Notes: generated from the letters alone by a model not told the origin. A stretch of 64,000 bases of DNA from Lachnospiraceae bacterium UBA3762 (GCA_002371615.1 DFGA01000033.1:14184-78183); one strand, 5' to 3'. Counted from the stretch's first letter, positions 17,428 through 58,360 are shown. A program made the numbers and translations.

Positions 17428-17514
17428 TTTTTGTATGCAATTTGTTTGTAAAATGATCAAATGAGTACAAAATAGTTGTAAAAGTGTGCGGAAAAAGAGG
17501 GAAAGAGACAATAA

Positions 17515-23274: not shown

Positions 23275-23277
23275 TCG

Positions 23278-24372: not shown

Positions 24373-24411
24373 AATAAGATTTATAAACCAAATTTGTGAT
24401 ATAATCAACAC

Positions 24412-29228: not shown

Positions 29229-29232
<4 letters not shown>

Positions 29233-30773
29233 TCCAGAAGATAAAAAATGACGGGCGGTTTGTCCTTATCTTTATAAGCAGCTTTGTATGGGGATTGCTT
29301 GCCCATGGCATGGCAATGTTCAACAAGTATTCATATCATGATGACGTTCCGCATTATAACGGGGTTGGAGTAACATATGAACTGGGAAGGTGGTTTCTGG
29401 CGATAAGCGGGAAGTTTGCTTCCTTTTTCTTTGGTAGTAAAAACTACAGTTTGCCGGCATTTGAGGGTGTAATTACTATTGCCGCGATTGCTGCCATGAC
29501 GTATATTATCTGCCTTAAACTTAGAATTGAGAATAAGGTTCTGATCGTAGCCCTGACCTCGGCTCTTGTGTGCTTTCCGGCAGTCACCAATATATTCGGC
29601 TATGTTTATACCGCACCGTATTATTACATCGGGGCATTAGCCGGAGTAGCCGGTGCATATATTTTCTACAAAAAGAAGTCTTTGCCCGCAGGGGCGGTGT
29701 GCGCAACTCTGATGGCTCTTTCTGTTGGCATATATCAGTCAAACATTCCGATCAACCTTATGGTCCTGCTGTTGTTTATGCTTGATGAAGTCTATTGCTC
29801 CGATATGGACCTGAAGGAGTTTATTACTCTGGCATTTAAGAATATCCTGATCTGTGTGATTTTTATGGCTGAGTACTTTGCTGCTAATGCACTTGCCCTT
29901 AGAATAACCGGGTTGCAGTTGTATGATTATAAGGCTGTCAGCAGTTTTGGACTCACGAATCCGGTCGAGTATCTGGTCAGGATAATTACAGCATACAAAA
30001 GATTCGTCAAGCCGGCAGACTTTATTAATTACAATAATGTATCAGCAAACATGTTTCCGTGGAATACCAAATATGTTCATATGCTGCTTGTGCTGGTCAT
30101 TGCAGTTCTTCTTGTACTGTTGTTAAGATCGGTACATGATGTTAAAAAAATTATCCAGATATGTATAATAACGGTATTAAGCCCGCTCTTTGCTTATTTT
30201 ATCTATGTGATGGTATCGGAAGAGGATGCTCACGGTGGAATGACTTTCGGTGAGTCTTTTATGTTCTTTTTTGCTGCTTATGTTATTGAACGGGCAGGGC
30301 AGAATGACAGGATCAAAAGATTTCTGTCAAAGGCGGCGGTTGCGCTTATGCTTGTTATCGGGGTAATGTTTGCCAGATATGCAAATGTCTGCTATTTAAA
30401 AGCTGATCTGATGCAGACTGAAGCGATCAATTATTATAACAGGCTGATTGCGCAGATACAGTCTGTCGAGGGGTACACAACCGAAACACCGGTTTTGTAT
30501 ATAGGGGGCAGAAACAAGAATGATGACGGCTTTTCGGGGGATTCCAGGTTTGATCCAATCTATCTTCCGCCTTATCAGAATAATTCGATAATTAACGATT
30601 TTTCATGGGAAGAAACTATGGAATTGTGGTGTTCCTTTGCACCACAAATGGCTGAACCGGACGCTATCGAATCATGGGATGTTATTGACGGGATGCCCAA
30701 TTATCCGGACGCTGGGTCTGTCAGGATGGTTGACGGAACAATAGTTGTAAAGTTTGCGGATTCTTCCGATTGA
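29229..30773 (+). CDS. Polytopic membrane protein, GtrII-type glucosyltransferase-like
   Basis: 514 aa. The N-terminus FVLIFISSFVWGLLAHGMAMFNKYSYHDDV resembles the GtrII glucosyltransferase family. Many TM segments. Its start overlaps the upstream stop. Confidence 0.45.
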
Positions 30774-35489: not shown

Positions 35490-37298
35490 ATGCGTAAACA
35501 GATTAAGATTCTTTTGATAGTTTTGAACATTATTTTCATATCTATGATCGGATTAATCAGAACCGCTGACAAGTCGGATTCTGTTGTATTCTCTATGGTC
35601 CCGGCATTGATCTGCGTTATTGTTCTTTTGTTCGGAAAATACAAGCTGTTTGAGGACAGGAGTAATATAAAATGGGACATCCTGCTTACCGTGATGTTTA
35701 TACTGATGCTTTCGCTTGAAGATGTATTGAAGACTATGCGTTCCATGGGCGCGGAACCATTCAATACGGTTTTTAAAATAGTGTACTTTCCGGTGTTGAT
35801 AATCGCATTGATCATTGATACAGATTACGCATTATTGGCAGCTGCCCATGCAGGAGCCTTGAGTCAGACCGTGAAGGATAAAACGGATGGAAGGGATTAT
35901 TTGGGGGACAAAAAGTTTCTGGGGATTTACTATCCTGTATGGTTATATATAGGTCTGACTTTTGTGTTTGTAATAGCATATTTTCCGGGACTTATGAACA
36001 GTGATTTTGAGAAACAGTGGATATGGGGTGAGGGACCGACTGTATGGAGTGATTGGCACACGGTAGGTTTTTTGATGTTTGTAAAACTGTGTACAGCGGT
36101 CATACATAAACCGTTTATGATCACAATTGTTCAGGTTTTGATGTATTATCTGACAGCAAATTATGCCGTTAGCGTATTGAACAGGAATTTTCCGGAGCGG
36201 CGCAGGGTCGGATGGATATTCATATGTGTGTATATGTTGTTTGGAATATACAGTTGTATGTATATGTCGGAGGTAAGAAAAGATAACTGCAGCACCCCGA
36301 TGATGCTTGCGTTTGCCGTAGCCCTGCTCGATCACTCCATGAGAAGCGAACACACAAAAAAGGAATATATTAATTTGGGCGTGTTTGCGTTTCTTGCATC
36401 ATTGTTCAGACATTCACTTTGGGAAATAGTATTGATAACACTGATGCTTACCATTGTCTGCGAAGCACTGGATCGCAGTACTGATAAAGATACAAAAAAG
36501 AAGACTGTTAGAAATCTGTGCGTAGTAGTGGCTACAACGATTGGAGCTTTTTTGATAGTGACGGAAGGGATCGGATTTGGGATTCTGAAAGCAGAGAGAA
36601 ATCCGGCCTATGTAAAATACACGATTCCGATGAATCTTGCAGCCTCTCTGGCCTATAGGAGCCGGGAAACCGGTCTGTATATAGAAGACGATATTGTGAA
36701 TAAAATGGAACAGATTATCCCGATGGAAAAATGGGCAGAGTATTATTGCCCGTACGATGCCGACACAACCGACAGGCCATGGCACGAGATCGGAGATAAT
36801 GTATATAAGCTTAATGATCCGCAAGTTGCCCGTGACATTATTGATGTAGATATGTATTATTTAACACACTATCCCAAGCAGTTTGTTCTTTCTTTTTTTG
36901 ATGTTAATTCCATAGTCTGGGAAATGGCTGTTGCATCGGATCTTGTCATGTATAGTCCCGGTCTTGCGACCGAACATTATGAGATTCACCATATGAGAAA
37001 AGGAGAGTTTTTCTATTTTGCCGAGAGTTGCAAGAAATTTATGTCATCGTTTGCTGTAGCAAGAGCTGTTGTATACAGGGGTGGGATCTATCTGTTTTTA
37101 CTGGCAATGATTACAGTCATATTGATAAAAAAGCAAAGGTTCAAAGTGCTTGCCTCAATGATGCCTATATTGCTATACGCCCTTGCACTTATGATTTCAA
37201 TTCCTCAGGAAGGGTCGCATTATATTATGGCGTTCCCTTTGTTTGCTGCATTATTTGGTGTTACATCATTTATGGTAGCGAGTAGGGAATCTCTCTGA
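35490..37298 (+). CDS. Large polytopic membrane protein, first gene of the CotH/VTC/DUF4956 operon
   Basis: 602 aa with many TM segments. Family unassigned. Only 11 nt separate it from the first CotH gene. Confidence 0.5.
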   Translation: MRKQIKILLIVLNIIFISMIGLIRTADKSDSVVFSMVPALICVIVLLFGKYKLFEDRSNIKWDILLTVMFILMLSLEDVLKTMRSMGAEPFNTVFKIVYFPVLIIALIIDTDYALLAAAHAGALSQTVKDKTDGRDYLGDKKFLGIYYPVWLYIGLTFVFVIAYFPGLMNSDFEKQWIWGEGPTVWSDWHTVGFLMFVKLCTAVIHKPFMITIVQVLMYYLTANYAVSVLNRNFPERRRVGWIFICVYMLFGIYSCMYMSEVRKDNCSTPMMLAFAVALLDHSMRSEHTKKEYINLGVFAFLASLFRHSLWEIVLITLMLTIVCEALDRSTDKDTKKKTVRNLCVVVATTIGAFLIVTEGIGFGILKAERNPAYVKYTIPMNLAASLAYRSRETGLYIEDDIVNKMEQIIPMEKWAEYYCPYDADTTDRPWHEIGDNVYKLNDPQVARDIIDVDMYYLTHYPKQFVLSFFDVNSIVWEMAVASDLVMYSPGLATEHYEIHHMRKGEFFYFAESCKKFMSSFAVARAVVYRGGIYLFLLAMITVILIKKQRFKVLASMMPILLYALALMISIPQEGSHYIMAFPLFAALFGVTSFMVASRESL

Positions 37299-37309
37299 GA
37301 ATAATACCA

Positions 37310-39310
37310 ATGAAAGCGCCAACTATAGTCAGAAAATACTTTCACATCATTTATGGTCTGCTCTTTGCCATTATTGTCGGGTTAAGCGGACTGGCAATTG
37401 TCCGGCAACAAAGGTCATCTGTTTTGATCAATGAAGTGTGTACGTCCAACGTTTCATGTTGCGAGGATGCAGACGGCAAATATCCTGATTGGATTGAATT
37501 GTTTAATCCTACAGACGAAACAGTTGACCTGTCGGGATATGTAATCAACAAATCCGCAGATTTACAAAAAGATAAGTTTGTGATTCCGGATGGAACAGTG
37601 ATCGCACCGGGGGCTTTTTATCTCTTCAATCCGGGATTTGTCCTGTCCTCCGAAGGATGCGTGTTGAATTTGGTCGATAAGAGAGGACAGTATAAGGATC
37701 ATGTCAGTGTTCCGGCATTGAAACATGATACAACCTACTCAAGATTCGACGATGGGTCATATGTGTGGGAGGTAAAGGTTCCGACTCCCGGATATGAGAA
37801 TTCTGAAGGAGATACGTTAGGCCGGCTTATTGAAGGGGAGGTATTGGCTTCTGCTCAACCCGGCTTTTATGACAACGGTTTTGATCTGACGCTGAAACCA
37901 TCAAATTGGGGGAGACGGGTGTATTATACTGTAGACGGAAGTGATCCGGTTAAATATGGACTGCTGTACGATAAGCCTGTTCATATATATGACCGGTCTT
38001 CCGAGAAAAACGTATACTCAGTCATACCTGATGTTTCTCTTGATTATATCGAGGGAAATGCTACACCACCGCAGTATACACTTGACAAGTGTATGGTGGT
38101 AAGGGCGGTTTCGAAGGATCTTCTCGGAAGATATACGGATATTAATACATTCACGTATTTTATAGGTTTCGACCAAAAAACTGCGTATGATGATATCAAT
38201 GTTGTGTCAATATCTGCAGATCCTGATGACCTGTTTTCTTATGAGAACGGGATAATGGTATTGGGAAAGAATTATGATGAATATGACAAAGCAGGACAAC
38301 CGGAGGATTATGAAGGAGACAATTCCAATTTTACAGTGCGGGGGAGACGATCGGAAAGAGATATATGCCTGGAGATATATGATAGTGATCGTAACAGGGT
38401 CCTCTCGGGAAATGCCGGGATGAGGATCAAAGGATTGTCATCAAGGTGGGATGTTCAAAAGAGTTTTTCGGTGTTTTTCAGAAAGGCATATGGAAGTAAC
38501 TATAAAGAGAAATTCAGTTTAGATGGCATTGATTTTGACCTGCATTCATTTGCCCTGGACAAGTGCGGACAGGATACTTCGACTAAAATGGTTGATACGA
38601 TCATGTCGGATTGTATGAGCAAAACCGGATGTGCAACTGCAAAACGTGTGCCGTGCTGCCTGTTTTTGAACGGGGAGTATTGGGGCTTTTATTGGATATC
38701 GGAACGTTTTGATGCGTCATTTCTTGCTGACCGGTATGGTGTAAATGCTGATTGTGTTGAGTATATGGATTGGGATGATATAGATAATTGGGATCCGGAG
38801 TTCTTTGACAGGGACTCACTTATAGACTATTATGCATCGAATATTATAGTTGCCCACAGAGGCGACTGGCCACCATTTAATTTCCGGTTCTGGAGAACAG
38901 TAACCGAAGACGAAACGGAATTTGGTGATGGTAAATACAGACCGGTGATTTTTGACATGAATTCAAGTTCAATGATGACCCCGGATTATAATTCTTTTGA
39001 GGTACTTATGAGTGTTTATCCATTCCAAAACGTAGTAGAGGAAGATGAGCGGTTTGCGGCAGATCTTGTCTCAAGAATTGACTCAATGAGTAAGAACGAG
39101 TTTTCTCCGGATAAGGTGTTGCCCATGATCAATTTATTATATGACCGCATGAAAGAACAGATGATCCTCGACAGAATGAGGTATTCAAACTGCAGTTCAA
39201 AAGAAGCGGAAGAATCGTTTGAAGAGAGTGTTGAGATTATCAGGAATTTCTACAGATTCAGGGGAGATTATCTTGAAAAATACAAGGACAGTTTTCTGAA
39301 TGAACAGTAG
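37310..39310 (+). CDS. Membrane-anchored lamin-tail-domain (LTD) + CotH kinase-family protein (paralogue 1)
   Basis: N-terminal basic stretch plus a TM segment. LTD motif LINEVCTSN...YPDWIELFNPTDETVDLSGY. Long CotH-like region (YYTVDGSDP...FLNGEYWGFYW...). Confidence 0.8.
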   Translation: MKAPTIVRKYFHIIYGLLFAIIVGLSGLAIVRQQRSSVLINEVCTSNVSCCEDADGKYPDWIELFNPTDETVDLSGYVINKSADLQKDKFVIPDGTVIAPGAFYLFNPGFVLSSEGCVLNLVDKRGQYKDHVSVPALKHDTTYSRFDDGSYVWEVKVPTPGYENSEGDTLGRLIEGEVLASAQPGFYDNGFDLTLKPSNWGRRVYYTVDGSDPVKYGLLYDKPVHIYDRSSEKNVYSVIPDVSLDYIEGNATPPQYTLDKCMVVRAVSKDLLGRYTDINTFTYFIGFDQKTAYDDINVVSISADPDDLFSYENGIMVLGKNYDEYDKAGQPEDYEGDNSNFTVRGRRSERDICLEIYDSDRNRVLSGNAGMRIKGLSSRWDVQKSFSVFFRKAYGSNYKEKFSLDGIDFDLHSFALDKCGQDTSTKMVDTIMSDCMSKTGCATAKRVPCCLFLNGEYWGFYWISERFDASFLADRYGVNADCVEYMDWDDIDNWDPEFFDRDSLIDYYASNIIVAHRGDWPPFNFRFWRTVTEDETEFGDGKYRPVIFDMNSSSMMTPDYNSFEVLMSVYPFQNVVEEDERFAADLVSRIDSMSKNEFSPDKVLPMINLLYDRMKEQMILDRMRYSNCSSKEAEESFEESVEIIRNFYRFRGDYLEKYKDSFLNEQ

Positions 39311-41330
39311 GATGAGAAGGATTACACTATTTTTCAGAATACATGCATATACTGCTATGATCCTGATCTTTGTCGTAATTACGATAGGGGTGGGTATAGT
39401 TACAGTCAGAAATTCACAGGACAACGTTGTTATAAACGAGGTTTGTACTTCTAATGTCAGATGCTGTGAGGATGAAAACGGAAAATATCCGGACTGGATA
39501 GAAATATATAACCCGACATCACGGGATATTGACCTGTCCGGCTATATTATTAATGATTCGGCTGATTTGAAAAAGGAAAAATACATAGTGCCCCAGGGTA
39601 CAGTTCTGGCTGCGGGGTCATACTATTTGTTTGACCCTCTGTTTTCTTTATCATCTGAAGGGTGTACTGTTAATATACTTGATGACAGGGAACGTTATGT
39701 AGACAGGGTGAAAATACCGAGACTGAAGTACGATACAACATATGGAAGGCTGAAGGATGGTTCGGGTGAATGGGGAGTCAAAATGCCGACTCCCGGTTAT
39801 TCCAACACTGACGGAGAGGATATTATTCCGACTATAAGCGGTAGTGTGAATGCCTCTTACGACTCAGGATTCTACTCCGATGAAATCGAGTTGGCTTTGT
39901 ATTCTTCTGATTACGGAAGGGATATTTATTATACAACTGACGGAAGTGATCCTGTGCATAACGGTACTCTTTACGAAGACCCCATCCGCATATATGATCG
40001 TTCGGAGGAGAAAAATGTCTATTCCGCAATTCCGGAGGTGTCCCTCGATTATATTGAGAATAATGATCCGCTTCCTTCATTTCCGGTTGATAAGTGTACT
40101 GTTGTCAGGGCTGTTGCAAAGGATCACCTGGGAAGGTATACGGATGTTAGTACGCATACATATTTCATAGGTTTCGACGAAAAGAAAGCATATGATAATA
40201 TGGCAGTAGTATCTGTTGCTTCCGACCCGGAAGATCTGTTCTCGGATGGAAACGGAATAATGGTACTCGGGGACAAGTATGCCCGGTATATTGAGGAAGG
40301 GAAGCCAGAGGAGTATGAGGCTGCAAAGGCTAATTTCGCATCAAAAGGGCGGCAGTCTGAAAGAGAGACTTATGTCCAAATATTTGATGAAAAGCATGTC
40401 CCCGTTCTCGCTTCTTCTGCCGGGATAAGAATAAAAGGCAAAACTTCAAGGTGGGACGTTCAAAAGAGTTTTAGCGTTATTTTTAGAAGAGCCTACAGCG
40501 GTTATTCAAAGAATCATTTTACGCTGGACGGATTGGATTTTGATATTCATTCATTTAATTTGGAAAAATGTGGGCAGGACGCAAAAACCAAGATGAAGGA
40601 TGCGATCATGGAAACCTGTATGCGAGATACGGAATGCGTTACCATGAAGATGGTACCATGTTGTATTTTTTTAGACGGAGAATACTTTGGGTTTTACTGG
40701 TTAACAGAACGGTTGGATAACAGTTTTATAGCTTCGGAATACGGAGTTGGTAAGGATAATGTTATAATTACAAGCGTATTTGATATCGAGAATGGCGTTG
40801 AATGGTGGAGTGACAAACTGGCGGACAGAAAGAGCATGATAGATTATTATGCGGGGAATATAATTGTATCGCATGAAAATGACTGGCCCGGAGCAAATTA
40901 CAAGGTATGGCGCACAATAGAGGATGATGGAACAAAATATGGTAATGCAAAATGGCGACCTATGATTTTTGATATGAATTCATCGTCGCTGAAGACTCCT
41001 GACTTTGATTCGTTTGAATATCTTATGGGATTCTATCCGTTTATGGATATGTCCTTGAGTGAAGATAATATGTTCAAAGAAGAACTTGTTGAGCGGATAG
41101 ATGAGATGGTTCAAAATGAATTTTCTCAGGACAGGGTTTTATCGCTTACAGACCAGTTTCACGACCGGATAAAAGATCAGATGATCCTTGACAGGATGAG
41201 GTATTCGGACTGTAGTGCGGAGGAAGCAGAGGAATACTTTGAAGAAGGGGTATCCTCTATAAGAAAGTTTTTCCGGGACAGGTACGACTATTTGAAGATA
41301 TATGAGGGTAAGTATTTAGATGGAAAATGA
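39300..41330 (+). CDS. Membrane-anchored LTD + CotH kinase-family protein (paralogue 2)
   Basis: Collinear with 37310..39310 (VINEVCTSNVRCCEDENGKYPDWIEIYNPTSRDIDLSGY...FLDGEYFGFYW). Overlaps the upstream gene by 11 nt. Confidence 0.8.
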   Translation: MNSRMRRITLFFRIHAYTAMILIFVVITIGVGIVTVRNSQDNVVINEVCTSNVRCCEDENGKYPDWIEIYNPTSRDIDLSGYIINDSADLKKEKYIVPQGTVLAAGSYYLFDPLFSLSSEGCTVNILDDRERYVDRVKIPRLKYDTTYGRLKDGSGEWGVKMPTPGYSNTDGEDIIPTISGSVNASYDSGFYSDEIELALYSSDYGRDIYYTTDGSDPVHNGTLYEDPIRIYDRSEEKNVYSAIPEVSLDYIENNDPLPSFPVDKCTVVRAVAKDHLGRYTDVSTHTYFIGFDEKKAYDNMAVVSVASDPEDLFSDGNGIMVLGDKYARYIEEGKPEEYEAAKANFASKGRQSERETYVQIFDEKHVPVLASSAGIRIKGKTSRWDVQKSFSVIFRRAYSGYSKNHFTLDGLDFDIHSFNLEKCGQDAKTKMKDAIMETCMRDTECVTMKMVPCCIFLDGEYFGFYWLTERLDNSFIASEYGVGKDNVIITSVFDIENGVEWWSDKLADRKSMIDYYAGNIIVSHENDWPGANYKVWRTIEDDGTKYGNAKWRPMIFDMNSSSLKTPDFDSFEYLMGFYPFMDMSLSEDNMFKEELVERIDEMVQNEFSQDRVLSLTDQFHDRIKDQMILDRMRYSDCSAEEAEEYFEEGVSSIRKFFRDRYDYLKIYEGKYLDGK

Positions 41331-42024
41331 CAACGTTTTTCGACATGAATTAAAATACCTTATCAACAGGCGTGAGATGGATTGCTGCCTGAGCAGATTG
41401 TCTGAGTTCGCCGAAGCGGATATTCATGCTAAAAATGGCACTTATGCTGTTAGAAGCCTGTATTTTGATGATCAGTACAGATCCGCATATAATGATAAGG
41501 AAAGTGGAGTAAGATCGAGGGCTAAGTACCGGATTAGGGTATATGACCTGGATCAGGGATATATAACACTTGAAAAAAAGATAAAAGAAGGGATGTACGT
41601 CAGGAAAGAATCAGCTTATTTATCAAAGAGTGAGTATGATATGATTATGTCGGATAATACGGATTTCCTTCTTGCAAGAAGCGAACGGGTGGCAAATGAT
41701 TTTGCAATAGAATGCAGGGTTAATGGGTTACATCCTGAGGTGATAGTAGATTACGACAGAATACCGTTTGTTTATGCCTACGGAAATGTACGTATTACAT
41801 TTGACATGAATATCAGGTCTTCATTTGATAAACTTGATGTGTTTGCGGTAAGTACTCCTGCTTACAACGTTCTTGGGGAGGATGAACTTGTGATGGAGGT
41901 CAAATACACGGAGTATCTGCCGGATATTATCAGAGTTGTGTTGCCCGATTCCGGTTGCAGGATGGCAGTGTCAAAATACGTTTTATGCGATGATGTAAAA
42001 CTTTTATTTAGGGAGGATATGTAA
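41320..42024 (+). CDS. VTC-domain protein (triphosphate-tunnel / polyphosphate-polymerase-like catalytic domain), copy 1
   Basis: 234 aa with no TM segment. FRHELKYLI at the N-terminus, then VRSLYFDD...AKYRIRVY...LEKKIK...MEVKY. This basic/acidic beta-strand pattern is typical of bacterial VTC-domain proteins. Confidence 0.75.
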   Translation: MENDNVFRHELKYLINRREMDCCLSRLSEFAEADIHAKNGTYAVRSLYFDDQYRSAYNDKESGVRSRAKYRIRVYDLDQGYITLEKKIKEGMYVRKESAYLSKSEYDMIMSDNTDFLLARSERVANDFAIECRVNGLHPEVIVDYDRIPFVYAYGNVRITFDMNIRSSFDKLDVFAVSTPAYNVLGEDELVMEVKYTEYLPDIIRVVLPDSGCRMAVSKYVLCDDVKLLFREDM

Positions 42025-42025
42025 A

Positions 42026-42706
42026 ATGAGTGTAAAGGATATGATCAAAAAATCGGTCTTGGAGTCAGCGGTTTACAACCAGTCAATGGCATCCGGAACG
42101 TATGTCACTATAGTAGTTGATATGATTGTTGCACTTATTATAGGGTATATAATTTACAAAATATACAAAAGGTTTTTTGCCGGGGTAGTGTATAGCAGAT
42201 TTTTTGCGGTAACACTTATTGGAATGACTGTACTCACATGTATGGTAACCCTTGCGATTTCCACTAATATCGTTATTTCACTGGGTATGGTCGGTGCACT
42301 TTCTATCGTAAGATATCGAACTGCAATAAAGGAGCCGCTTGATATTATGTATCTATTTTGGGCAATAACCGAGGGAATAACTATAGGCGCCAGTATGTAC
42401 ATCCTTGCTTCTATAGGAATGCTCGTAATGCTTATTGTAGTAATCGGGATGAGTAAGATGAAAGAGAACAGAGGAACATTTGTTATGATTGTGCATCTGA
42501 ATGATGATGCCGCCAAAGAAAAAATCCTTGATGTATTAAAATCATATGTATACTCCGTGAAGAACAGCATTCTGCGTGAAGATACAACTGAGCTGACCAT
42601 TCAGATTGATATGAATAAAGATGACGGTATAGCCGAAAAGGTTCGTGCTATATCAGGTGTTAATGATGTAGCGCTGATCCAATATAACGGGGAATACCAT
42701 GGCTAG
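42026..42706 (+). CDS. DUF4956-family membrane protein, copy 1
   Basis: About 4 TM segments, the hallmark SLGMVGALSIVRYRTAIKEPLD, and a soluble C-terminal domain of about 85 aa. Confidence 0.75.
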   Translation: MSVKDMIKKSVLESAVYNQSMASGTYVTIVVDMIVALIIGYIIYKIYKRFFAGVVYSRFFAVTLIGMTVLTCMVTLAISTNIVISLGMVGALSIVRYRTAIKEPLDIMYLFWAITEGITIGASMYILASIGMLVMLIVVIGMSKMKENRGTFVMIVHLNDDAAKEKILDVLKSYVYSVKNSILREDTTELTIQIDMNKDDGIAEKVRAISGVNDVALIQYNGEYHG

Positions 42707-44828
42707 ATCTGCTGATACAAGACGTACGGCATTAATCGCTTTTTTATTTTTGCTCTTGGCAGTAACGTTTTCGGGAACTATTCTAAGTAACAAAAATGGG
42801 AATGATCTCTATATTTCTGAGGTTTGCCCGCATAATGAAAATGTGATCCACGATTCGGTAGGATTTTACCAGGATTATATAGTTTTGACCAACCCGTCCG
42901 ATCATATGATAGATCTTGAAGGATACGGTTTGTCGGATAAAAGGTCGGAATTAAGGGAGTTTGTATTTTCTGGTTCGGTAATACAACCGCTGGGGACTCT
43001 TGTTGTATGGACAGACTATCCTTCGCAGTTTGGCGACGGCTATTATGATGAAGACGCAATTTACACGGATTTTAAAATAAGTGATCATGAGTACCTGTAT
43101 TTGACAGATCCTTACGGAAGAGTTATTGATTCCCTGCGAATCCCCAATATGTCATCAAATGAAGTGTTGCTAAGAGACAAGCCCAATGCCAGAGGATCTG
43201 TCGGAACGTCAGGCTTTATCAAAAAGTCCACACCGGTTGTTTCAAAGGATATTGAACCACCGAGGATGTCGGCAGACTCGGGTTTTTATGAACATCCGTT
43301 TGAATTATCAATGTCAGGAAAGTATGATGTTTATTATACTGACGATGGAAGCAATCCTTATTTGTATGGGAAACCTTATGAGGGACAGATACAGATAATC
43401 GATAGAAGTAACCTGCCTGATATATACAGTGTTTTAGGTCCTGTATCGGCAGCATACGAACAATTTTATCCTGATAAGCCTGTTGCAAAATCAACGATCA
43501 TTCGTGCTGTCTCCCAAAGAGATGATGGAACATTTTCCGAGGAGTCGGTTGCAACTTTTTTCGTGGGTAAGGAAGTAAGAGACATTTGTTCGGACAGCTA
43601 TATCGTATCAATGGTTTCCGACCCGGATGGTTTGTTTTCTGATTATGATGGGATATACATGAGTGGGATCACCTGGGAGCTAAACTCCGAAAAGGTTGCA
43701 TCTATGGGTGCTGATCCTGTATACGCTCCCGCCAATTACAATATGCGGGGTAAAGGATGGAGAAGGGGAGCAAAGCTTATGCTTTTTGACCCGGACGGAA
43801 ATTGTCTGTATGATGAAGATGATATAGTAAGTATACGCGGTAAATCCTCCCGCGCGGTTGTACAGAAGGGGTTTAACATAAGGCCCCAAACGGATGATGG
43901 AACGGTGTTTAACGGGTTAATAGACGGTGCCGGTGATATATTAATGTTGCGCACGGGAAGTGCAGAAGATGTTTTTTTGACGAATTTCAGGGATGCGTTG
44001 AATGCAAGAATAGCGGATAACCTTAAGGTCGGTGCGCAAAGGTCGCTATGCTGCCAGATGTTTTTGAATGGGGAATACTGGGGATGTTACAGCCTTCAGG
44101 AACATCTGGATACAAGCTTTATCGAAGCAAGATATAATGTTTCTGCCGAAAATGTGAATCTCATCAAGATTGATGGCGAACCGGAGGTTCTTTCCGAACT
44201 GACAAGTGATCTGAATATGTATCAGGATGTGGAAAGATTTCTGGCAGAACATGATCTTTCGGTCGATGCCGATTACAAACAGTTTTGTGATATGGTGGAT
44301 ATAGACAGTGCTATTGATTATTACTGCGCCGAGATCTTTTTCGCAAATGATGACGCGTATCTGGGGAATAAGGCTCTTTGGAGAGCCCGGAATGTTGGAC
44401 CGAATCCCTATGAGGATGGTAAATGGAGGTTTCTTTTGTTTGACCTGGATAATACGGACGGATATGCTCCTAATGCCGGTGCAGATATAGATTCGTTCAT
44501 AGACGGAAGTTATGCGGGATATAATGCAACAGATGATTTGTTTTTTTCCGGTTTGATAAAAAACTCTGATTTCAGACAACGGTTCAGGGAGCGATTTGAA
44601 GAACTATTGGCAAATGATTTTTCCTATGAAACCATAGAAAAGATTATAGATGAGTTTGAAAACAGGTATGAAGAGCCGATGGTATCATCTGTCAGACGAT
44701 TTCATGATGCTGAGTTTACAGAAAAGCAGTATCACGAAAATGTCCGGGTTGTCAGGGAATTCTTCAGGGAAAGAGGCAGATATATAGGCGGGTATCTTGA
44801 GCTGCATATGGGAGAGTCAGGAAGATGA
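42699..44828 (+). CDS. Membrane-anchored LTD + CotH kinase-family protein (paralogue 3, divergent)
   Basis: N-terminal TM segment, LYISEVCPHN...YIVLTNPSDHMIDLEGY (LTD), YYTDDGSNP, FLNGEYWGCY. Overlaps the upstream gene by 8 nt. Confidence 0.75.
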   Translation: MARSADTRRTALIAFLFLLLAVTFSGTILSNKNGNDLYISEVCPHNENVIHDSVGFYQDYIVLTNPSDHMIDLEGYGLSDKRSELREFVFSGSVIQPLGTLVVWTDYPSQFGDGYYDEDAIYTDFKISDHEYLYLTDPYGRVIDSLRIPNMSSNEVLLRDKPNARGSVGTSGFIKKSTPVVSKDIEPPRMSADSGFYEHPFELSMSGKYDVYYTDDGSNPYLYGKPYEGQIQIIDRSNLPDIYSVLGPVSAAYEQFYPDKPVAKSTIIRAVSQRDDGTFSEESVATFFVGKEVRDICSDSYIVSMVSDPDGLFSDYDGIYMSGITWELNSEKVASMGADPVYAPANYNMRGKGWRRGAKLMLFDPDGNCLYDEDDIVSIRGKSSRAVVQKGFNIRPQTDDGTVFNGLIDGAGDILMLRTGSAEDVFLTNFRDALNARIADNLKVGAQRSLCCQMFLNGEYWGCYSLQEHLDTSFIEARYNVSAENVNLIKIDGEPEVLSELTSDLNMYQDVERFLAEHDLSVDADYKQFCDMVDIDSAIDYYCAEIFFANDDAYLGNKALWRARNVGPNPYEDGKWRFLLFDLDNTDGYAPNAGADIDSFIDGSYAGYNATDDLFFSGLIKNSDFRQRFRERFEELLANDFSYETIEKIIDEFENRYEEPMVSSVRRFHDAEFTEKQYHENVRVVREFFRERGRYIGGYLELHMGESGR

Positions 44829-45523
44829 GGCATGAAGAAAAGTATATCTGCTCGGAGAGACAGTTGGAAATCATAGAACACCGCCTTAAAACGATTCTGC
44901 CATTTGATGCAAATCAGGAAGGCAGCGACTACGGGATACGCAGTTTGTATTTCGATACGGTGGATGACAGGATGTACCATGAGAGCCTGTATGGGGTTGA
45001 CAGACGCAGTAAGTATCGTATACGCTTTTACAATATGTCGGAAGAATTATTCAGAATGGAGCGAAAAGATGCTGTAGGAAGGATGAAGCAAAAGCATTCG
45101 TCGGTTATTGATAAGAATACGGTCCACTCCCTGGTTGAAGGAAGGCCGATTCATGACAGTGAGGATGAAGTTGTTCATGAGGTCCATCTCCTGCAGAAGA
45201 CGGAAGGGCTTCATCCTGTAGTTATAGTTGATTACAGAAGATGCGCATTTACCTGTCCTACAGGTAATGTGAGAATAACGATAGATCGTGATATTTCATG
45301 TACCCATTGTGTATATGATTTTATGGAAGACCATCCGATACTGTTTCCAGTCATGCCATACAGAAAACATATTCTTGAGGTTAAGTATGACGGAATATTG
45401 CCGGGATATATAGTGTCAGCTGTCGATGTAGGGAATTTGGAGCAGGTTTCGGTGTCAAAATATGTTTTTTCAAGAAATGTGATTGAAGGAAACGGAAGAA
45501 GGGAATACGGATATGAGTTTTAA
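44825..45523 (+). CDS. VTC-domain protein, copy 2
   Basis: MRHEEKYIC...IRSLYFDT...SKYRIRFY...LEVKY is collinear with 41320..42024. Confidence 0.75.
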   Translation: MRHEEKYICSERQLEIIEHRLKTILPFDANQEGSDYGIRSLYFDTVDDRMYHESLYGVDRRSKYRIRFYNMSEELFRMERKDAVGRMKQKHSSVIDKNTVHSLVEGRPIHDSEDEVVHEVHLLQKTEGLHPVVIVDYRRCAFTCPTGNVRITIDRDISCTHCVYDFMEDHPILFPVMPYRKHILEVKYDGILPGYIVSAVDVGNLEQVSVSKYVFSRNVIEGNGRREYGYEF

Positions 45524-46184
45524 AGATATGATCAGAAATTCGGTATTGAGTAACTTCAGTAGCGACATTACACTACAGAGGATAGCAATTGTTCTGCTTT
45601 TGTCACTTGTTCTGGGGATATATGTGTTTATAGTTTACAGGATGACTGTCAATAATGAGTTTTATTCAAAAGATTATAACAGAACCCTTGTATTGATGGC
45701 GGTTGTGACGGCAGGAATCGTACTGGCGGTACAATCCAATCTGGTAATTTCTCTCGGTATGGTCGGAGCACTTTCAATCGTAAGATTCCGAACGGCGATA
45801 AAGAGTTCGATAGATCTTTTCTTCCTGTTTTGGGCTATCAGCATAGGAATTATATGCGGAGCAGGATTATACTTTCTTGCAGCTGTATTATGCGTTGTTG
45901 TAACGGCCGGATTGTATATAACGGGTCGGATGGCCAGTCCGGTGTCACTTGGCCTGCTGATTGTTAATTGCAGTACATCCGAAACAGCAGACAGAGTAAT
46001 AGAGAGGGTAAAACCCGTTACAAGATTTCTCAGAATGAAGAATAAGACTGTATCCAAAGATAATGTGGAACTTATCCTTGAGTACAAAGCGAATGATGAA
46101 AAGGCTCTGGAAAGTGTTCTTAAAGAGATTGACGATGTTACCAGATATGCTTTTATGAATTATGATAGGGAGACAAGAATCTAG
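45513..46184 (+). CDS. DUF4956-family membrane protein, copy 2
   Basis: SLGMVGALSIVRFRTAIKSSID is collinear with 42026..42706. The ATG at 45513 overlaps the VTC stop. Confidence 0.75.
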   Translation: MSFKDMIRNSVLSNFSSDITLQRIAIVLLLSLVLGIYVFIVYRMTVNNEFYSKDYNRTLVLMAVVTAGIVLAVQSNLVISLGMVGALSIVRFRTAIKSSIDLFFLFWAISIGIICGAGLYFLAAVLCVVVTAGLYITGRMASPVSLGLLIVNCSTSETADRVIERVKPVTRFLRMKNKTVSKDNVELILEYKANDEKALESVLKEIDDVTRYAFMNYDRETRI

Positions 46185-46247: not shown

Positions 46248-46320
46248 GGGATCTTAGCTCAGCTGGGAGAGCATCTGCCTTACAAGCAGAGGGTCATAGG
46301 TTCGAGCCCTATAGGTCCCA
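46248..46320 (+). tRNA. tRNA-Val (anticodon TAC)
   Basis: I folded the cloverleaf by hand. Acceptor GGGATCT/AGGTCCC, anticodon loop CTTACAA, T-arm ATAGGTTCGAGCCCTAT. CCA is not encoded. Confidence 0.9.
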
Positions 46321-46349
46321 TATTGTCACGATCGAAGATCGCGACCTTT

Positions 46350-46423
46350 GGCGAGGTGGCTCAACTGGCTAGAGCGTCCGGTTCATACCCGGGAGGTTAA
46401 GAGTTCAAGTCTCTTCCTCGCTA
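46350..46423 (+). tRNA. tRNA-Met (anticodon CAT), elongator-like
   Basis: GGCGAGGTGGCTCAACTGGCTAGAGCGTCCGGTTCATACCCGGGAGGTTAAGAGTTCAAGTCTCTTCCTCGCTA. It lacks the initiator 1:72 mismatch. I cannot exclude the lysidine-type Ile2 identity. Confidence 0.8.
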
Positions 46424-46444
46424 TTAAAAAGGAAATATGTAAAT

Positions 46445-46472
46445 ACCGCAAACAGTGAGTTTGCGGTATTTT
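46445..46472 (+). terminator. Rho-independent terminator after the tRNA pair
   Basis: ACCGCAAAC-AGTGA-GTTTGCGGT followed by ATTTT. Confidence 0.7.
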
Positions 46473-46490
46473 GGTATGGGAGCGGGTGAG

Positions 46491-48080
46491 ATGGAAGATA
46501 AAAAATATAAAAATCTTATCTTTGCAGGGTTGATGGCTGCTGTTGCAGCACTGTTTGCGGTCACGCGATTATACAGGCTGGATATTGTTCCTTTCGGTCC
46601 TTACAGGATGCACATTGATGAATTAGGTGCGGCTTATGATGCATTTTGCATTTCGGATTACGGAGTAGACCAGTTCCTATACCGTATGCCGGTATATTTT
46701 AAGTGTTTCGGTGAAGGGCAGAATGCTCTTTATACATATCTGGCTGTTATTGCTTTCAGATTAGGCGGTATTTCCATATTCAGTTTCAGGCTTCCTGCCG
46801 TTATATGTGCAGCGGGAGCTTTTGCTGCACTGTTTTTTATGGTCAGGGATCTTCTGGATCGTTGGTATGCCATCGTTGCCCTTATTCTGATGACGGTAAT
46901 GCCTGTATTTATGATGAGTGAACACTGGGGCCTGGAAGCTTATCTGATGATGAGTTTTGTTATTATATCCATGGCGTTCCAGATACGTGCCGTCATTACG
47001 AACAGACCGGTTTATTATGCTCTGGCGGGTACGTTCTGGGGTCTGACACTATACACATATGCGATGTCATATATTATTGTGCCGCTGTTTCTTCTGGCTT
47101 CATTTATCATTCTGCTCATATACAAAAAACTCAGTTTAAAAAACATACTGATGGTCGGAATACCTCTTATTATTCTCGGATTTCCCCTGCTTTTGCAACA
47201 GTTTGTTATGATGGGCGTTCTGAAGCCCTTTTCGCTTTTCGGGGTGATTGATTTCTGGAATACTTCTCATTACAGGGCAGATGAAATATCTCCTGCCTTT
47301 GTACCCGAAAACCTGATTATGTCGTTTAAGTACACATATGTTGCCGACCGGTCCGCCTATGACGCTAATGCGACATACGGAACCATGTATTATATCTCGA
47401 TCCCGTTTATTCTTACCGGAATGATAGCCTCCGCATATGCGGTAATTAAGGACGTAAGAGCCGGAGTACTTAACCTGTGGTTGTTTAACTGGATGTTTTT
47501 CCTTGTGGCAAGGGTATTTCTACTGTTTGTGAAGTATCCGAATATAAACCGTATCAACGGTATCTTCCCGGCATATCTTTTATTTGCCGTATATGGCATT
47601 ATGACCGTGGCAGGCAAAATAAGAAAGAAAGCAGTATTTTTTGCAGTATTGTGTCTTGCCTATATGATATGCTTTCTGTCTTTTTCCAAGTATTTCTATT
47701 CCCATGACGGCCTGCAAAATGATGCCTATGATATAGGAGACAGTCTCGGGTGTGATCTGGAGGCGGGAGCGGCCGCACAACTTGCCAAAAAGATAGCAAT
47801 GGGGAAACCGGTTTGTGCCATGTTAAATGATGGCTGGCGCAGAGATCTTTCTATTGCCTTATATACAGAAACTTCACCTTATGATTTTAACAGAGACCAT
47901 GAACCGCATGACACTGTTTATAACGGGTTGGTTTGGGAAATGCCGGAGGAACTTGATCTGACGGGTGGTACGGTTTACCTTATCGATAATGAACTTAGTC
48001 ATATTACATCTTACCTGGTTACTGATGAAGGGTTTTCGGTGGATATCACGTATCCGGATTTTACAGTGGTTTACAAATAG
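46491..48080 (+). CDS. GT-C fold glycosyltransferase (ArnT/PMT_2-like); paralogue of 19724..21388
   Basis: HIDELGAAYD, MPVYF, GEGQN, MSEHWGLEAYLM, LYTYAMSYIIVPLFL. The track's GTG at 46455 lies inside the terminator hairpin, so the ATG at 46476 or 46491 is more plausible. Confidence 0.65.
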   Translation: MEDKKYKNLIFAGLMAAVAALFAVTRLYRLDIVPFGPYRMHIDELGAAYDAFCISDYGVDQFLYRMPVYFKCFGEGQNALYTYLAVIAFRLGGISIFSFRLPAVICAAGAFAALFFMVRDLLDRWYAIVALILMTVMPVFMMSEHWGLEAYLMMSFVIISMAFQIRAVITNRPVYYALAGTFWGLTLYTYAMSYIIVPLFLLASFIILLIYKKLSLKNILMVGIPLIILGFPLLLQQFVMMGVLKPFSLFGVIDFWNTSHYRADEISPAFVPENLIMSFKYTYVADRSAYDANATYGTMYYISIPFILTGMIASAYAVIKDVRAGVLNLWLFNWMFFLVARVFLLFVKYPNINRINGIFPAYLLFAVYGIMTVAGKIRKKAVFFAVLCLAYMICFLSFSKYFYSHDGLQNDAYDIGDSLGCDLEAGAAAQLAKKIAMGKPVCAMLNDGWRRDLSIALYTETSPYDFNRDHEPHDTVYNGLVWEMPEELDLTGGTVYLIDNELSHITSYLVTDEGFSVDITYPDFTVVYK

Positions 48081-48095
48081 GATAATATATTTGAT

Positions 48096-49913
48096 ATGAG
48101 CAGATTGAATTTAACAGATGAGAACATCAATAAAAAACTTCGTATAGCAGCTCTTGTATTGATCATTATTCTGATTTCGTGGCCGTTTTTGTTTATGGAC
48201 CTTGCCAAGGGACACGATATGCTGTTCCACCTTCAGCGTATCGAGGGAATACGTCAGGATGTGTCATTGAGACATTTTCCTGTCCGGATGCAATCGGGAT
48301 GGATGAGAGGATACGGATACCCCGTTTCAATACTGTACGGAGATGTATTTTTGTATATCGGGGCTGTGTTCAGAAAACTCGGTTTTCCTGTTATGGTTTC
48401 ATTCAGACTGTTTATGGTATGTGTGAATACTGCGGCTGTTCTCATATCTTATTTTTCGTTTAAAGTGTTTAATAAAGGCTGGGCACCCGTAATAGCTACA
48501 GCAGCATATACTACATCCTCATATCGCCTTGTTGACGAGTATGTACGGTCGGCGATAGGCGAAACCCTTGCTATAGTATTCTTTCCGGCGGTTGCCGCAT
48601 GTATATACCTTATCCTTACAACTAAAGACTATCACAGAAGGCGTAAATATACAGTGGTGCTTTCACTCTCATTCCTGGCCGTTATCTGCTCTCACACATT
48701 AACGACAAGTATGATGCTTGTTGTATTGGTTCTGTTCGGACCCGTTAGTCTTGTGCTGTTCGGAATTAAAGGAGAACGTATCAGACAGATGGGAAATGTT
48801 GTAATGGCCGGAATACTCACGATCCTTATGTCGGCTTTTTTTGTCATTCCTTTTCTGGATACATACCTTAATGCGGGGATAGCATTTGCTCTTAAGCGAA
48901 AAAACAGTATTCAGGGCGAAGGGCCTGGAATTACCGATCTGTTTGAGTTTGTATGCAATCCGTTCGGGGGAACGAATGGCGGCTCAATTCAACAGACTCC
49001 GGGGCCTGTGCTTATATGCTTTCTTATTATTGCGATAGTTGCATGTATAGTTTCCGTAATAAGAAAGACCGATTTTCCTAACAGGAACCGTATTGTATTT
49101 GAGACGGTAGCGAGCCTGATACTGCTGCTTATGTCTTCCGCTTATTTTCCGTGGAATTTTATAGAAGATAATGTCCCTGTACTTGGCGGAATTCTTACGG
49201 CAATAGAATTTCCCATGCGTTACCTTGCGTTTGCCATAGTATTTATGGCATTGCTTACGGGTGATATGATCAGGCTGATAGGTGACAGGCTTGGTTCGGG
49301 CAGTTCCGGGATAACTTCAGGATGTGCGGTTAAGGCAGTATGCATCGTGATAATGTGCGCCCTGTTTATATTTAATGTTGCCCAGATATGCTTCCACAGC
49401 CGTACTTACGAAAAAAGAGCCGATTATAAAAACGTCGAAGACCTTGGTGAGTGGAGATATTATGCGATGGACTTCCGGCTCGAGAACACGACGGTTGATG
49501 ATCTGCCGACCGGCCTTGTTCATGAGGGTATGCTCAGCATGGAGGTGCTCTCAAGGGACAGCAATGAGTTCCTGATCGCGTGTGTTACAGGACCTGACTA
49601 TGGTTGGATACAGCTTCCGGTGTTTAATTACCCGTATTATCATGCGGCGGATCTTGAAAACCCCAAAATGGAATTTGAGATACATGATGGTGGAAACAGA
49701 ACTGTCGGTGTATTACTTCCTGCAAATTATGAAGGGATACTCCATGTGTACTGGCAGGAGCCGGTATTCTGGAGAGTTTCCGAGGTGGTATCATATATAA
49801 CATTTGCACTGTGCATTCTGTATCTGTTAGCCATATCCGATAAAGATAATGGCATTAAAAGGATTTATAACAGGTTAAGTAAAAATGGGACTGATAAAGA
49901 GTATCAAAAATGA
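48096..49913 (+). CDS. Large polytopic membrane protein, GT-C-like; paralogue of 13490..15676
   Basis: GHDMLFHLQRIEGIRQDVSLRHFPVRMQSGWMRGYGYPVSILYGDVFLYIGAVF aligns by eye with the 13490 protein. Confidence 0.6.
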   Translation: MSRLNLTDENINKKLRIAALVLIIILISWPFLFMDLAKGHDMLFHLQRIEGIRQDVSLRHFPVRMQSGWMRGYGYPVSILYGDVFLYIGAVFRKLGFPVMVSFRLFMVCVNTAAVLISYFSFKVFNKGWAPVIATAAYTTSSYRLVDEYVRSAIGETLAIVFFPAVAACIYLILTTKDYHRRRKYTVVLSLSFLAVICSHTLTTSMMLVVLVLFGPVSLVLFGIKGERIRQMGNVVMAGILTILMSAFFVIPFLDTYLNAGIAFALKRKNSIQGEGPGITDLFEFVCNPFGGTNGGSIQQTPGPVLICFLIIAIVACIVSVIRKTDFPNRNRIVFETVASLILLLMSSAYFPWNFIEDNVPVLGGILTAIEFPMRYLAFAIVFMALLTGDMIRLIGDRLGSGSSGITSGCAVKAVCIVIMCALFIFNVAQICFHSRTYEKRADYKNVEDLGEWRYYAMDFRLENTTVDDLPTGLVHEGMLSMEVLSRDSNEFLIACVTGPDYGWIQLPVFNYPYYHAADLENPKMEFEIHDGGNRTVGVLLPANYEGILHVYWQEPVFWRVSEVVSYITFALCILYLLAISDKDNGIKRIYNRLSKNGTDKEYQK

Positions 49914-58162: not shown

Positions 58163-58183
58163 TTGTTATAATTGAATACCAAA

Positions 58184-58360
58184 GACAGATGGTCTGTGCT
58201 TTTTGCATGGTTAAAAGAGAAGTCAGGTGCAAAGCCTGCGCGAACTCGTCACTGTAAGTATGGAGTATGCTTTTGTAGTATGTCACTGGGACAGATGGTT
58301 CCCGGGAAGGCGAAGGGCATGTGTTGATATACGAGCCAGGAGAACTGCCATCTGCCTGTA
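58184..58360 (+). promoter_or_regulatory. Cobalamin (B12) riboswitch aptamer
   Basis: GGTTAAAAGAGAAGTCAGGTGCAAAGCCTGCGCG...TCGTCACTGTAAG...GAGCCAGGAGAACTGCC (B12 box). P1 candidates are CAGATGG (58186-58192) and CCATCTG (58348-58354). The downstream genes are corrinoid-transport genes. Confidence 0.8.

Follow-up and report, generated by a model that had tools for sequence, protein, structure and literature searches.

A conserved CotH-VTC-DUF4956 gene module pairs a Vtc4-like tunnel enzyme with an MgtC-related membrane protein and may supply polyphosphate to the bacterial surface

Introduction

In a 64,000-nucleotide stretch of the genome of Lachnospiraceae bacterium UBA3762 (GCA_002371615.1, DFGA01000033.1:14184-78183; hereafter the window), two genes encoding soluble VTC-domain proteins are each followed immediately by a gene for a DUF4956 membrane protein, and three genes for CotH kinases lie among them. 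What might a soluble enzyme of this family be doing beside a polytopic membrane protein and a surface kinase? A first-pass annotation had proposed that each VTC-DUF4956 pair is a split analogue of the eukaryotic VTC polymerase/channel, which would synthesize polyphosphate (polyP) at the membrane and export it. The analysis presented here supports that interpretation in part. The VTC proteins carry the catalytic residues of yeast Vtc4 and their genes are constantly linked to DUF4956 genes, which encode distant relatives of MgtC, and an outward-facing CotH kinase is a nearly constant third partner. The gene trio itself is already in print, with its enzyme annotated as a polyP polymerase domain: its occurrence next to pel operons of Gram-positive bacteria has been pointed out (Whitfield et al. 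2020; mBio 2025), and the cotH/polyP-polymerase/DUF4956/DUF4832 accessory genes of the Streptococcus intermedius pel operon (SIR_1594-1591) have been studied (mBio 2025). Our literature search found no biochemical or structural characterization of a bacterial VTC-domain enzyme and no biochemical study of the CotH-VTC-DUF4956 trio.

Results

The VTC proteins share their predicted fold and catalytic residues with yeast Vtc4

The module consists of seven plus-strand open reading frames (ORFs) spanning positions 37310-46184, in which every junction is either an overlap or a 1-nt gap and a purine-rich sequence resembling a Shine-Dalgarno site lies ahead of every start. Its components are as follows (aa, amino acids):

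CotH kinase 1 (CotH1), 37310..39310, plus strand: 666 aa; N-terminal membrane anchor, lamin-tail domain (LTD), CHB_HEX_C/Fn3_assoc and CotH domain; predicted extracytoplasmic
CotH kinase 2 (CotH2), 39300..41330, plus strand: 676 aa; architecture as CotH1; 11-nt overlaps with CotH1 and VTC1
VTC1, 41320..42024, plus strand: 234 aa; soluble Vtc4-like triphosphate tunnel enzyme, putative polyP polymerase
DUF4956-1, 42026..42706, plus strand: 226 aa; membrane protein of the MgtC superfamily; begins 1 nt past the VTC1 stop codon
CotH kinase 3 (CotH3), 42699..44828, plus strand: 709 aa; N-terminal anchor, LTD and full-length CotH domain; 8-nt overlap with DUF4956-1 and 4-nt overlap with VTC2
VTC2, 44825..45523, plus strand: 232 aa; second Vtc4-like tunnel enzyme
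DUF4956-2, 45513..46184, plus strand: 223 aa from ATG 45513; 11-nt overlap with VTC2
tRNA-Val and tRNA-Met, 46248..46424, plus strand: detected with Rfam and ARAGORN; mark the downstream end of the seven-gene operon

The spacing reported in the first-pass annotation was correct, as DUF4956 follows VTC after a 1-nt gap in the first pair and with an 11-nt overlap in the second. For DUF4956-2, the mechanically called ORF begins at TTG 45483, and ATG 45513 was chosen from the alignment, in which homologues begin with MS[VF]KDMI. The two VTC copies share 32% identity and the two DUF4956 copies 33%, so these are old paralogous pairs and not the product of a recent duplication; CotH1 and CotH2 are 57% identical. 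An Rfam scan of the operon gave no regulatory RNA, riboswitches included, and a Pfam scan detected no SPX domain in any of its ORFs.

Both VTC proteins match the Pfam family VTC (PF09359) far above its cut-off of 23 bits (VTC1, E=1.6e-32, 113 bits; VTC2, E=6.3e-37, 128 bits), and the family comprises more than 5,288 homologues, chiefly from Lachnospiraceae, that NCBI labels 'polyphosphate polymerase domain-containing protein'. As had been noticed at first pass, neither protein has a transmembrane (TM) segment, their peak 19-residue Kyte-Doolittle means (0.81 and 0.86) falling short of the 1.6 cut-off, and both begin with an RHE[L/E]KY motif (RHELKY at VTC1 8-13, RHEEKY at VTC2 2-7) and carry the basic strands KYRIRVY, LEKKIK and MEVKY. 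For the enzyme, the comparison with yeast structures that the annotation had suggested agreed with its proposal. The AlphaFold2 (AF2) model of VTC1 has high confidence (predicted local distance difference test score [pLDDT] 93.4, predicted TM-score [pTM] 0.89) and contains eight long strands. In a Foldseek search of the PDB, its ranks 1-13 were all tunnel domains of yeast Vtc4, Vtc3 and Vtc2 (E values of 5e-13 to 2e-10, TMq 0.64-0.74), and the next-best matches were other triphosphate tunnel enzymes, namely ygiF, CYTH and thiamine triphosphatase (ThTPase). The putative closed tunnel is assigned from the eight long model strands together with these fold matches. At the sequence level, a family profile was required, as phmmer with VTC1 alone gave only marginal PDB matches while a profile of 45 VTC sequences matched the Vtc4 catalytic domain (3g3q) with E=1.8e-6. 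The model thus supports assignment of the VTC ORFs to the triphosphate tunnel metalloenzyme (TTM) fold, with yeast polyP polymerase as the nearest relative.

A cryo-electron microscopy study of yeast VTC found that polyP synthesis requires K200, R264, R266, K281, Y359, R361, S457 and K458 in addition to the Mn2+ ligand E426, and that, of these, K458 alone is exchanged in the paralogues without activity (to I522 in Vtc2 and L527 in Vtc3). Residues invariant among the 45 VTC sequences include R8, E10, K12, R71, R73, E85, K87, K96, Y145, R147, R158, T160, D162, E193, K195, S218 and K219 (VTC1 numbering). Alignment to Vtc4 gave the following equivalences:

Vtc4 R196: VTC1 R8, VTC2 R2 (hmmalign)
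Vtc4 K200: VTC1 K12, VTC2 K6 (hmmalign)
Vtc4 R264: VTC1 R71, VTC2 R65 (hmmalign)
Vtc4 R266: VTC1 R73, VTC2 R67 (hmmalign)
Vtc4 K281: VTC1 K87, VTC2 K81 (hmmalign)
Vtc4 K294: VTC1 K96, VTC2 K90 (hmmalign)
Vtc4 Y359: VTC1 Y145, VTC2 Y137 (hmmalign)
Vtc4 R361: VTC1 R147, VTC2 R139 (hmmalign)
Vtc4 R373: VTC1 R158, VTC2 R150 (hmmalign)
Vtc4 E426: VTC1 E193, VTC2 E185 (weak colinear alignment)
Vtc4 K428: VTC1 K195, VTC2 K187 (weak colinear alignment)
Vtc4 S457: VTC1 S218, VTC2 S211 (weak colinear alignment)
Vtc4 K458: VTC1 K219, VTC2 K212 (weak colinear alignment)

The conservation of tunnel residues, which had been put forward as a check on the original proposal, is therefore complete for the Vtc4 catalytic equivalents across the 45 sequences. 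The C-terminal sequences of the yeast proteins, taken from PDB alignments via a Vtc2-derived query and then aligned locally, read AVLEVKLQ...PKFSKFIHG in Vtc4, PKFSIF in Vtc2 and PKFSLY in Vtc3, and the bacterial SK pair agrees with that of active Vtc4; a PDB search with a profile limited to the C-terminal third of VTC missed Vtc4. Likewise, the first glutamate of the ExExK strand is an arginine in the bacterial proteins, as it is in Vtc4. Judged from these alignments, VTC1 and VTC2 carry the full Vtc4 catalytic set, including the equivalent of K458 that marks the active subunit, and in both sequence and predicted structure they are members of the VTC catalytic-domain family.

VTC and DUF4956 genes are invariably adjacent and occasionally fused

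We sampled the linkage between the two genes from both sides. Among 80 VTC-seeded loci from GTDB species representatives, 76 were evaluable (the other four end at a contig edge) and DUF4956 lies directly downstream of VTC in all 76. Conversely, 80 metagenome loci were collected using DUF4956 as the seed, and VTC lies directly upstream in 71/71 of those evaluable, i.e., having at least 400 nt of upstream sequence. Gene order is fixed and both genes are on the same strand. Nor are the sequence features of the VTC and DUF4956 ORFs due to chance: each family has thousands of homologues.

A search with a concatenated query also recovered fusions in both orders. A clean DUF4956-then-VTC fusion is represented by three sequence variants of 458-462 aa on three contigs (P0255, P0256 and P0258), all of which keep every catalytic motif and are encoded just 3' of an LTD-LTD-CotH gene. 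The reverse order, VTC then DUF4956, was accepted more cautiously for a Clostridium botulinum protein (P0242) encoded inside a PelG-CotH-fusion-DUF4832 locus. Constant adjacency, together with fusion in one lineage, makes a physical VTC-DUF4956 partnership likely. Other candidate fusions were rejected, either as truncated chimeras or frameshift read-throughs (P0241, P0243-45, P0247, P0254 and P0261) or because the C-terminal SK helix is absent (P0248, P0252, P0257 and P0260). In the rejected database 'proteins', a truncated VTC runs into DUF4956 at its middle or its start, with junctions that vary, and one of these proteins includes an out-of-frame stretch; such joins resemble assembly collapses, deletions or frameshifts and could mislead counts of domain architectures. 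Divergence of VTC and divergence of DUF4956 are also correlated (r=0.70), which was set aside as evidence of interaction, as shared ancestry predicts it.

DUF4956 is a distant MgtC relative with an ACT-like C-terminal domain

Both window copies match Pfam DUF4956 (PF16316) with E values of ~2-4e-10 (3.5e-10 for DUF4956-2), and the family, which some sources name 'YhiD', has more than 7,916 homologues. The segment SLGMVGALSIVR[YF]RTAIK, highlighted at first pass, occupies residues 85-102 of DUF4956-1 and residues 80-97 of DUF4956-2, and most of its positions are invariant in an alignment of 38 sequences, with the invariant pattern SLGMVGALSIVRYRTAIK at residues 85-102 of DUF4956-1. Across 28 dereplicated sequences, conservation peaks at residues 59-125 (TLIGMTVLT.MVTLAISTNIVISLGMVGALSIVR.RTA.K.P.DI.YLFWAIT.GIT.GA). 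The conservation of this segment was thus confirmed, while its description as amphipathic was not: it is a small-residue-rich membrane helix that closes in a cluster of invariant basic residues, R96, R98 and K102. In DUF4956-1 the hydrophobic region extends over residues ~23-147 and is followed by a soluble tail of ~80 aa, close to the ~85 aa first estimated, with an ACT-like beta-alpha-beta-beta-alpha-beta arrangement at 150-220. As for the original count of about four TM helices, hydropathy and a low-confidence model are compatible with either four or five. The fusions place both ends of DUF4956 in the compartment of the enzyme that uses adenosine triphosphate (ATP), which argues for an even number of helices and for a cytoplasmic ACT-like domain. 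Our description agrees with that published for the S. intermedius orthologue, namely four TM helices, MgtC-like, with an ACT domain.

Only the C-terminal domain of the low-confidence DUF4956 model yielded meaningful fold matches, to ACT domains and to the corresponding domain of M. tuberculosis MgtC (2lqj). At E<=10, the DUF4956 family profile matched none of the VTC chains in the PDB. Of the proposed split VTC analogue, the Vtc4-like enzyme therefore stands, while DUF4956 shows no detectable sequence similarity to the three-helix VTC membrane subunits, so that 'analogue' is the only possible relationship. Similarity was found instead to the MgtC/SapB/YhiD superfamily. All 38 DUF4956 members match PF02308 weakly (best E=7e-4; the first member scores 11 bits against a cut-off of 31.4) and 35/38 match PRK09977 (MgtC/SapB; best E=7e-8), DUF4956-1 doing so with E=6.9e-5 and 22.6 bits against a cut-off of 214. 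Since the curated thresholds of PF02308 and PRK09977 are not reached, this is similarity at the superfamily level only. In hhalign, DUF4956 residues 78-216 aligned with residues 69-213 of E. coli YhiD over 132 colinear columns (E=1.6e-4, probability 51%), placing the conserved DUF4956 helix on the MgtC motif G-x-G-F-I-G-A-G. From these profile comparisons, DUF4956 appears to be a divergent, distant MgtC/SapB/YhiD relative with an ACT-like C-terminal domain, and its conserved helix is, by the same alignments, largely an inheritance of the superfamily rather than a polyP-specific invention. The arginine-rich segment, offered at first pass as a candidate anion path, is consequently in part a hallmark of the superfamily; R98 and K102 alone seem peculiar to DUF4956.

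DUF4956 is better conserved than its VTC partner in 75/75 loci, and this, combined with its near-invariant membrane core (residues 59-125), suits an intramembrane function better than a passive anchor. Most DUF4956 proteins of the DUF4956-1 clade also end in a YNGEYHG tail (residues 220-226; 42686-42703), which is missing from DUF4956-2 and has a linker in its place in the DUF4956-VTC fusions.

An outward-facing CotH kinase is the third partner

With Pfam scans and multi-seed phmmer searches, CotH was found to adjoin the VTC-DUF4956 pair in 76/80 genome loci. A count of 3/80, obtained with a hidden Markov model built from the three window proteins, was discarded as a sensitivity artefact. The window proteins match Pfam CotH with E values of 1.3e-24 (CotH1), 6.8e-25 (CotH2) and 4e-43 (CotH3, covering profile positions 1-322 of 322), and CotH1 and CotH2 also match LTD (E=1e-11 and 5e-13, respectively). 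A profile of 12 CotH partners matched Bacillus cereus CotH (5jd9) with E=6.7e-27; the levansucrase PDB matches that phmmer had given for CotH3 were spurious, and this profile found CotH in their stead. The catalytic aspartate pair D552/D582 of CotH3, corresponding to D224/D247 in B. cereus and D228/D251 in B. subtilis, is invariant in 12/12 partners, and the D-x4-N and metal-binding Asp motifs of CotH1 align with those of 5jd9. The CotH partners are, as far as these residues tell, catalytically intact.

Each window CotH has a single N-terminal anchor with the more positive charge on its N-terminal side (in CotH1, the sole hydrophobic segment is residues 10-33), and the CotH of the related genome loci is a lipoprotein with a visible lipobox sequence. 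Either arrangement, lipoprotein or N-terminal anchor with this charge bias, implies that the CotH kinase domain faces outward.

The module occurs within and outside pel loci

Among the 80 related genome loci, 65 are Gram-positive pel operons in the order pelD-E-A-F-G, CotH, VTC, DUF4956, DUF4832. No pel genes were found in the 64-kb window by tblastn with PelD/E-A/F/G from one such locus (L072). Trios without pel were found in the window, where the module is duplicated (three CotH genes and two VTC-DUF4956 pairs), and in loci L005, L014 and L081; two further loci outside pel (L002 and L003) have only the VTC-DUF4956 pair, and CotH is missing from their flanks. A recent study reports that the trio is not found outside Pel loci (mBio 2025), to which the window, L005, L014 and L081 are counter-examples. 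The presence of the module outside Pel loci in the window also suggests a role broader than Pel biology.

Several features of the surroundings deserve mention. The window has an extracytoplasmic glycosylation cluster at 46455-48080, 19724-21388, 29229-30773 and 22300-24411, encoding two proteins of the PMT_2 (GT-C) type, GtrII and two GT2 proteins, of which one includes a GtrA domain, and sugar-nucleotide enzymes are encoded at 12154-18897; the cluster looks like a region for surface-glycopolymer decoration. Proteins of cyclic di-GMP (c-di-GMP) turnover (GGDEF-EAL, PAS-GGDEF-EAL and HD-GYP) are repeatedly encoded no more than a few kb from VTC-DUF4956, for instance in the window at 30819-33473 (GGDEF-EAL), at L011:11346-13439, in L052, L017 and L026, and at L002:8756-9826 (HD-GYP), which hints at c-di-GMP control of these modules. 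A 477-aa protein found on 44 Eisenbergiella contigs (P0283) joins DUF4956 to the C-terminal end of PelG, a polytopic protein of Pel export/biosynthesis, and so ties DUF4956 physically to an exopolysaccharide membrane machine. Two polytopic membrane proteins with at least 10 hydrophobic segments each flank the operon, at 35490-37298 (602 aa, ending 12 nt ahead of CotH1) and 48096-49913 (605 aa); neither has a Pfam or NCBIfam match, or a homologue in 82 related loci. Elsewhere in the window, a cobalamin riboswitch (RF00174, 111.5 bits) lies at 58173-58366, upstream of the ORFs at 58556-62743, and two long ORFs, 13490-15676 (728 aa) and 24412-26403 (663 aa), have no Pfam match.

Discussion

How might the three proteins work together? 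In the model that we tentatively favor, VTC would be a cytoplasmic Vtc4-like tunnel enzyme that builds a phosphate chain from the gamma-phosphate of ATP. DUF4956 would bind it at the inner face of the membrane, where its ACT-like cytoplasmic domain may regulate the enzyme, and polyP synthesized there would be passed to or through a DUF4956 oligomer, with the invariant R96/R98/K102 cluster at its cytoplasmic mouth. The product would then reach the cell surface, the site of the CotH proteins and of surface glycopolymers, and CotH would be the externally anchored kinase that completes a three-part membrane-spanning module. That the product is polyP, that VTC and DUF4956 form a complex and that the product crosses the membrane are each inferred, and a channel or polyP-export role of DUF4956 is plausible. 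A surface destination is suggested by the CotH adjacency, its outward anchoring and invariant Asp pair, and the pel and surface-glycosylation neighborhoods; moreover, a cytoplasmic ATP-dependent enzyme could reach an extracellular partner only via a membrane protein. Taken as a whole, synthesis by VTC together with DUF4956 at the inner face and delivery of the product to the surface is a realistic possibility, although we would stop short of calling it probable. A bolder version, in which polyP made by VTC is threaded through the DUF4956 oligomer and used by surface CotH as a phosphoryl donor or substrate in the phosphorylation of surface proteins or glycopolymers (or is attached or organized by CotH to that end), amounts to a trans-envelope phosphoryl supply line and is, in our estimate, unlikely.

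A number of observations weigh against this model. The hydrophobic segments of DUF4956 contain no basic residues, the AF2 model of its monomer is poor (pLDDT 65, pTM 0.37, from the 38-sequence alignment), and its hallmark helix is common to MgtC/YhiD, a family for which we know of no proven transport activity. Salmonella MgtC is reported to work not as a transporter but through its binding to other proteins of the membrane, namely the F1Fo ATPase and PhoR. In S. intermedius, deletion of DUF4956 or CotH altered aggregation while deletion of the VTC gene did not, and the DUF4956 mutant produced more Pel (mBio 2025). The partners are therefore not phenotypically equivalent, contrary to what a strict polymerase/channel pair predicts, although the asymmetry could be compatible with a mislocalized product in a channel mutant. 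Finally, the adjacency sample is mostly from gut Firmicutes and Collinsella. In an alternative in which polyP stays in the cytoplasm, DUF4956 would be a non-conducting, MgtC-like tether or sensor for the polyP synthase, whose ACT-like domain binds a metabolite and switches the enzyme, in the part played by SPX; the link to CotH and exopolysaccharide would then be regulatory, reflecting for example phosphate or energy status. ACT domains are typically small-molecule-binding regulatory modules, and the kinship to MgtC/SapB/YhiD, the raised Pel of the DUF4956 mutant, which looks regulatory, the recurrence of c-di-GMP enzymes beside the module, the mode of action of Salmonella MgtC and the lack of basic residues within the TM segments all fit such an arrangement. 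It leaves unaccounted for, however, an extracytoplasmic kinase that is nearly constant (76/80 loci), and, for a mere anchor or sensor, one would not predict a membrane core that hardly varies and exceeds the enzyme in conservation. In addition, bacterial cytoplasmic polyP normally comes from PPK1 or PPK2, and a second cytoplasmic system located at surface-polymer loci would be odd. We regard this regulatory alternative, the main rival of the favored model, as rather unlikely, if still to be taken seriously.

Other reservations concern the enzyme. Strand 1 is RxExK, with the invariant Glu10 where Vtc4 has Thr198, one step nearer to the hydrolytic ExExK, and may leave room for a hydrolytic TTM activity; also, the equivalence of E193, K195, S218 and K219 is drawn from a weak colinear profile alignment (2.1 bits) combined with motif identity (LEVK, SK[YF]) and the fold match. 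It is thus conceivable that VTC is not a polymerase at all, and acts either as a tripolyphosphatase/NTPase or by transferring a phosphate or pyrophosphate group to an acceptor that is linked to a lipid or glycan and that DUF4956 presents, in which case it would, with CotH, phosphorylate or modify a surface glycopolymer. The hydrolases ygiF, CYTH and ThTPase, which are the next-best fold matches, do share the tunnel and similar basic residues, and the window context is one of undecaprenyl-phosphate-type surface glycosylation (GT2-GtrA, GtrII and PMT_2 GT-C). The nearest matches in both fold and sequence are nonetheless VTC polymerases rather than hydrolases, the equivalent of the Vtc4-specific Lys458 is invariant, and both Vtc4 and the bacterial proteins have Arg in place of the first glutamate of ExExK. 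A non-polymerase VTC seems improbable to us. Least credible is the notion that VTC and DUF4956 are mere neighbors in accessory loci with no functional coupling. The differing S. intermedius deletion phenotypes are the sole point in its favor; it is opposed by the adjacency in 76/76 and 71/71 loci with fixed order and strand, the overlapping or 1-nt junctions, the presence in one operon of two pairs that have diverged to 32-33% identity and yet are each retained intact, and the independent fusions in both orders, and we give it very little credence.

If the favored model of synthesis and delivery is true, VTC would constitute a third bacterial polyP route beside PPK1 and PPK2; VTC-type polymerases have so far been treated as eukaryotic. 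The family is spread through Firmicutes and Actinobacteria of the gut and mouth, among them Collinsella, Faecalibacterium, Streptococcus, Clostridium and Lachnospiraceae, and its tie to a membrane protein and a surface kinase offers a testable origin for extracellular or cell-surface polyP. In the pel-linked versions, an exported polyanion could cross-link the cationic Pel. The module also suggests a source of phosphoryl donor for extracytoplasmic CotH kinases, and the supply line, if it exists, would explain kinase activity outside the cell, where ATP is absent. The defined enzymatic partner of DUF4956 could likewise help to decipher the molecular role of MgtC-type membrane domains.

Comparison with known systems

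The closest point of reference is the yeast VTC complex (Vtc4/Vtc3/Vtc1; 3g3q, 7ytj and 8i6v). The predicted eight-stranded triphosphate tunnel of the bacterial enzyme finds its best structural match there and shares its catalytic residues, including the K458 equivalent. In both systems a membrane protein is linked to the enzyme, in bacteria through gene adjacency and fusions, and each has a regulatory domain of its own, which in yeast is SPX, the site of regulation by inositol pyrophosphates, and in bacteria would be the ACT-like domain. However, the bacterial enzyme is a free-standing protein of 232-234 aa lacking both SPX and the C-terminal three-helix TM domain, and its first strand is RxExK rather than the RxTxK of Vtc4. 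The yeast channel is composed of five Vtc1-type three-helix (DUF202) subunits and has rings of basic residues at its cytoplasmic vestibule, whereas DUF4956 is MgtC-like with no detectable similarity to Vtc1, and only the bacterial module includes an extracytoplasmic CotH kinase. The bacterial system therefore lacks Vtc1-type channel subunits as well as SPX regulation, both of which define the VTC complex; to say that it is a VTC complex would be incorrect, and to say that it works like VTC is to state a hypothesis.

The membrane component is better compared with MgtC/SapB/YhiD (PF02308; PRK09977). Weak colinear similarity runs across the last membrane helices and the C-terminal domain, the G-x-G-(F/M)-(I/V)-G-A motif and the next G-rich helix align with DUF4956, and a polytopic N-terminal domain precedes an ACT-like C-terminal domain resembling that of M. 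tuberculosis MgtC (2lqj) in the same colinear order. DUF4956 differs in having its own basic cluster (R98 and K102), N-terminal helix and YNGEYHG tail, and in always being paired with VTC, a pairing that the accounts of characterized MgtC proteins covered here do not report.

The Gram-positive pel module contains the same three families in the same tight arrangement. The window differs in lacking pel genes and the DUF4832 hydrolase, in having the module twice with three CotH genes, and in the form and position of CotH, which in pel loci is a lipoprotein of ~590 aa encoded upstream of the pair. In the window it is an LTD-containing, N-terminally anchored protein encoded downstream, giving the order VTC-DUF4956-CotH that is also seen in L001, L009 and L014. 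Finally, the CotH partners keep both catalytic aspartates of the Bacillus CotH spore-coat kinase (5jd9/5jda). The Bacillus enzyme acts in the ATP-containing cytoplasm of the mother cell, whereas the CotH proteins of the module face outward as membrane-anchored proteins or lipoproteins and have LTD/CHB_HEX_C domains, and their genes are linked to the VTC-DUF4956 pair.

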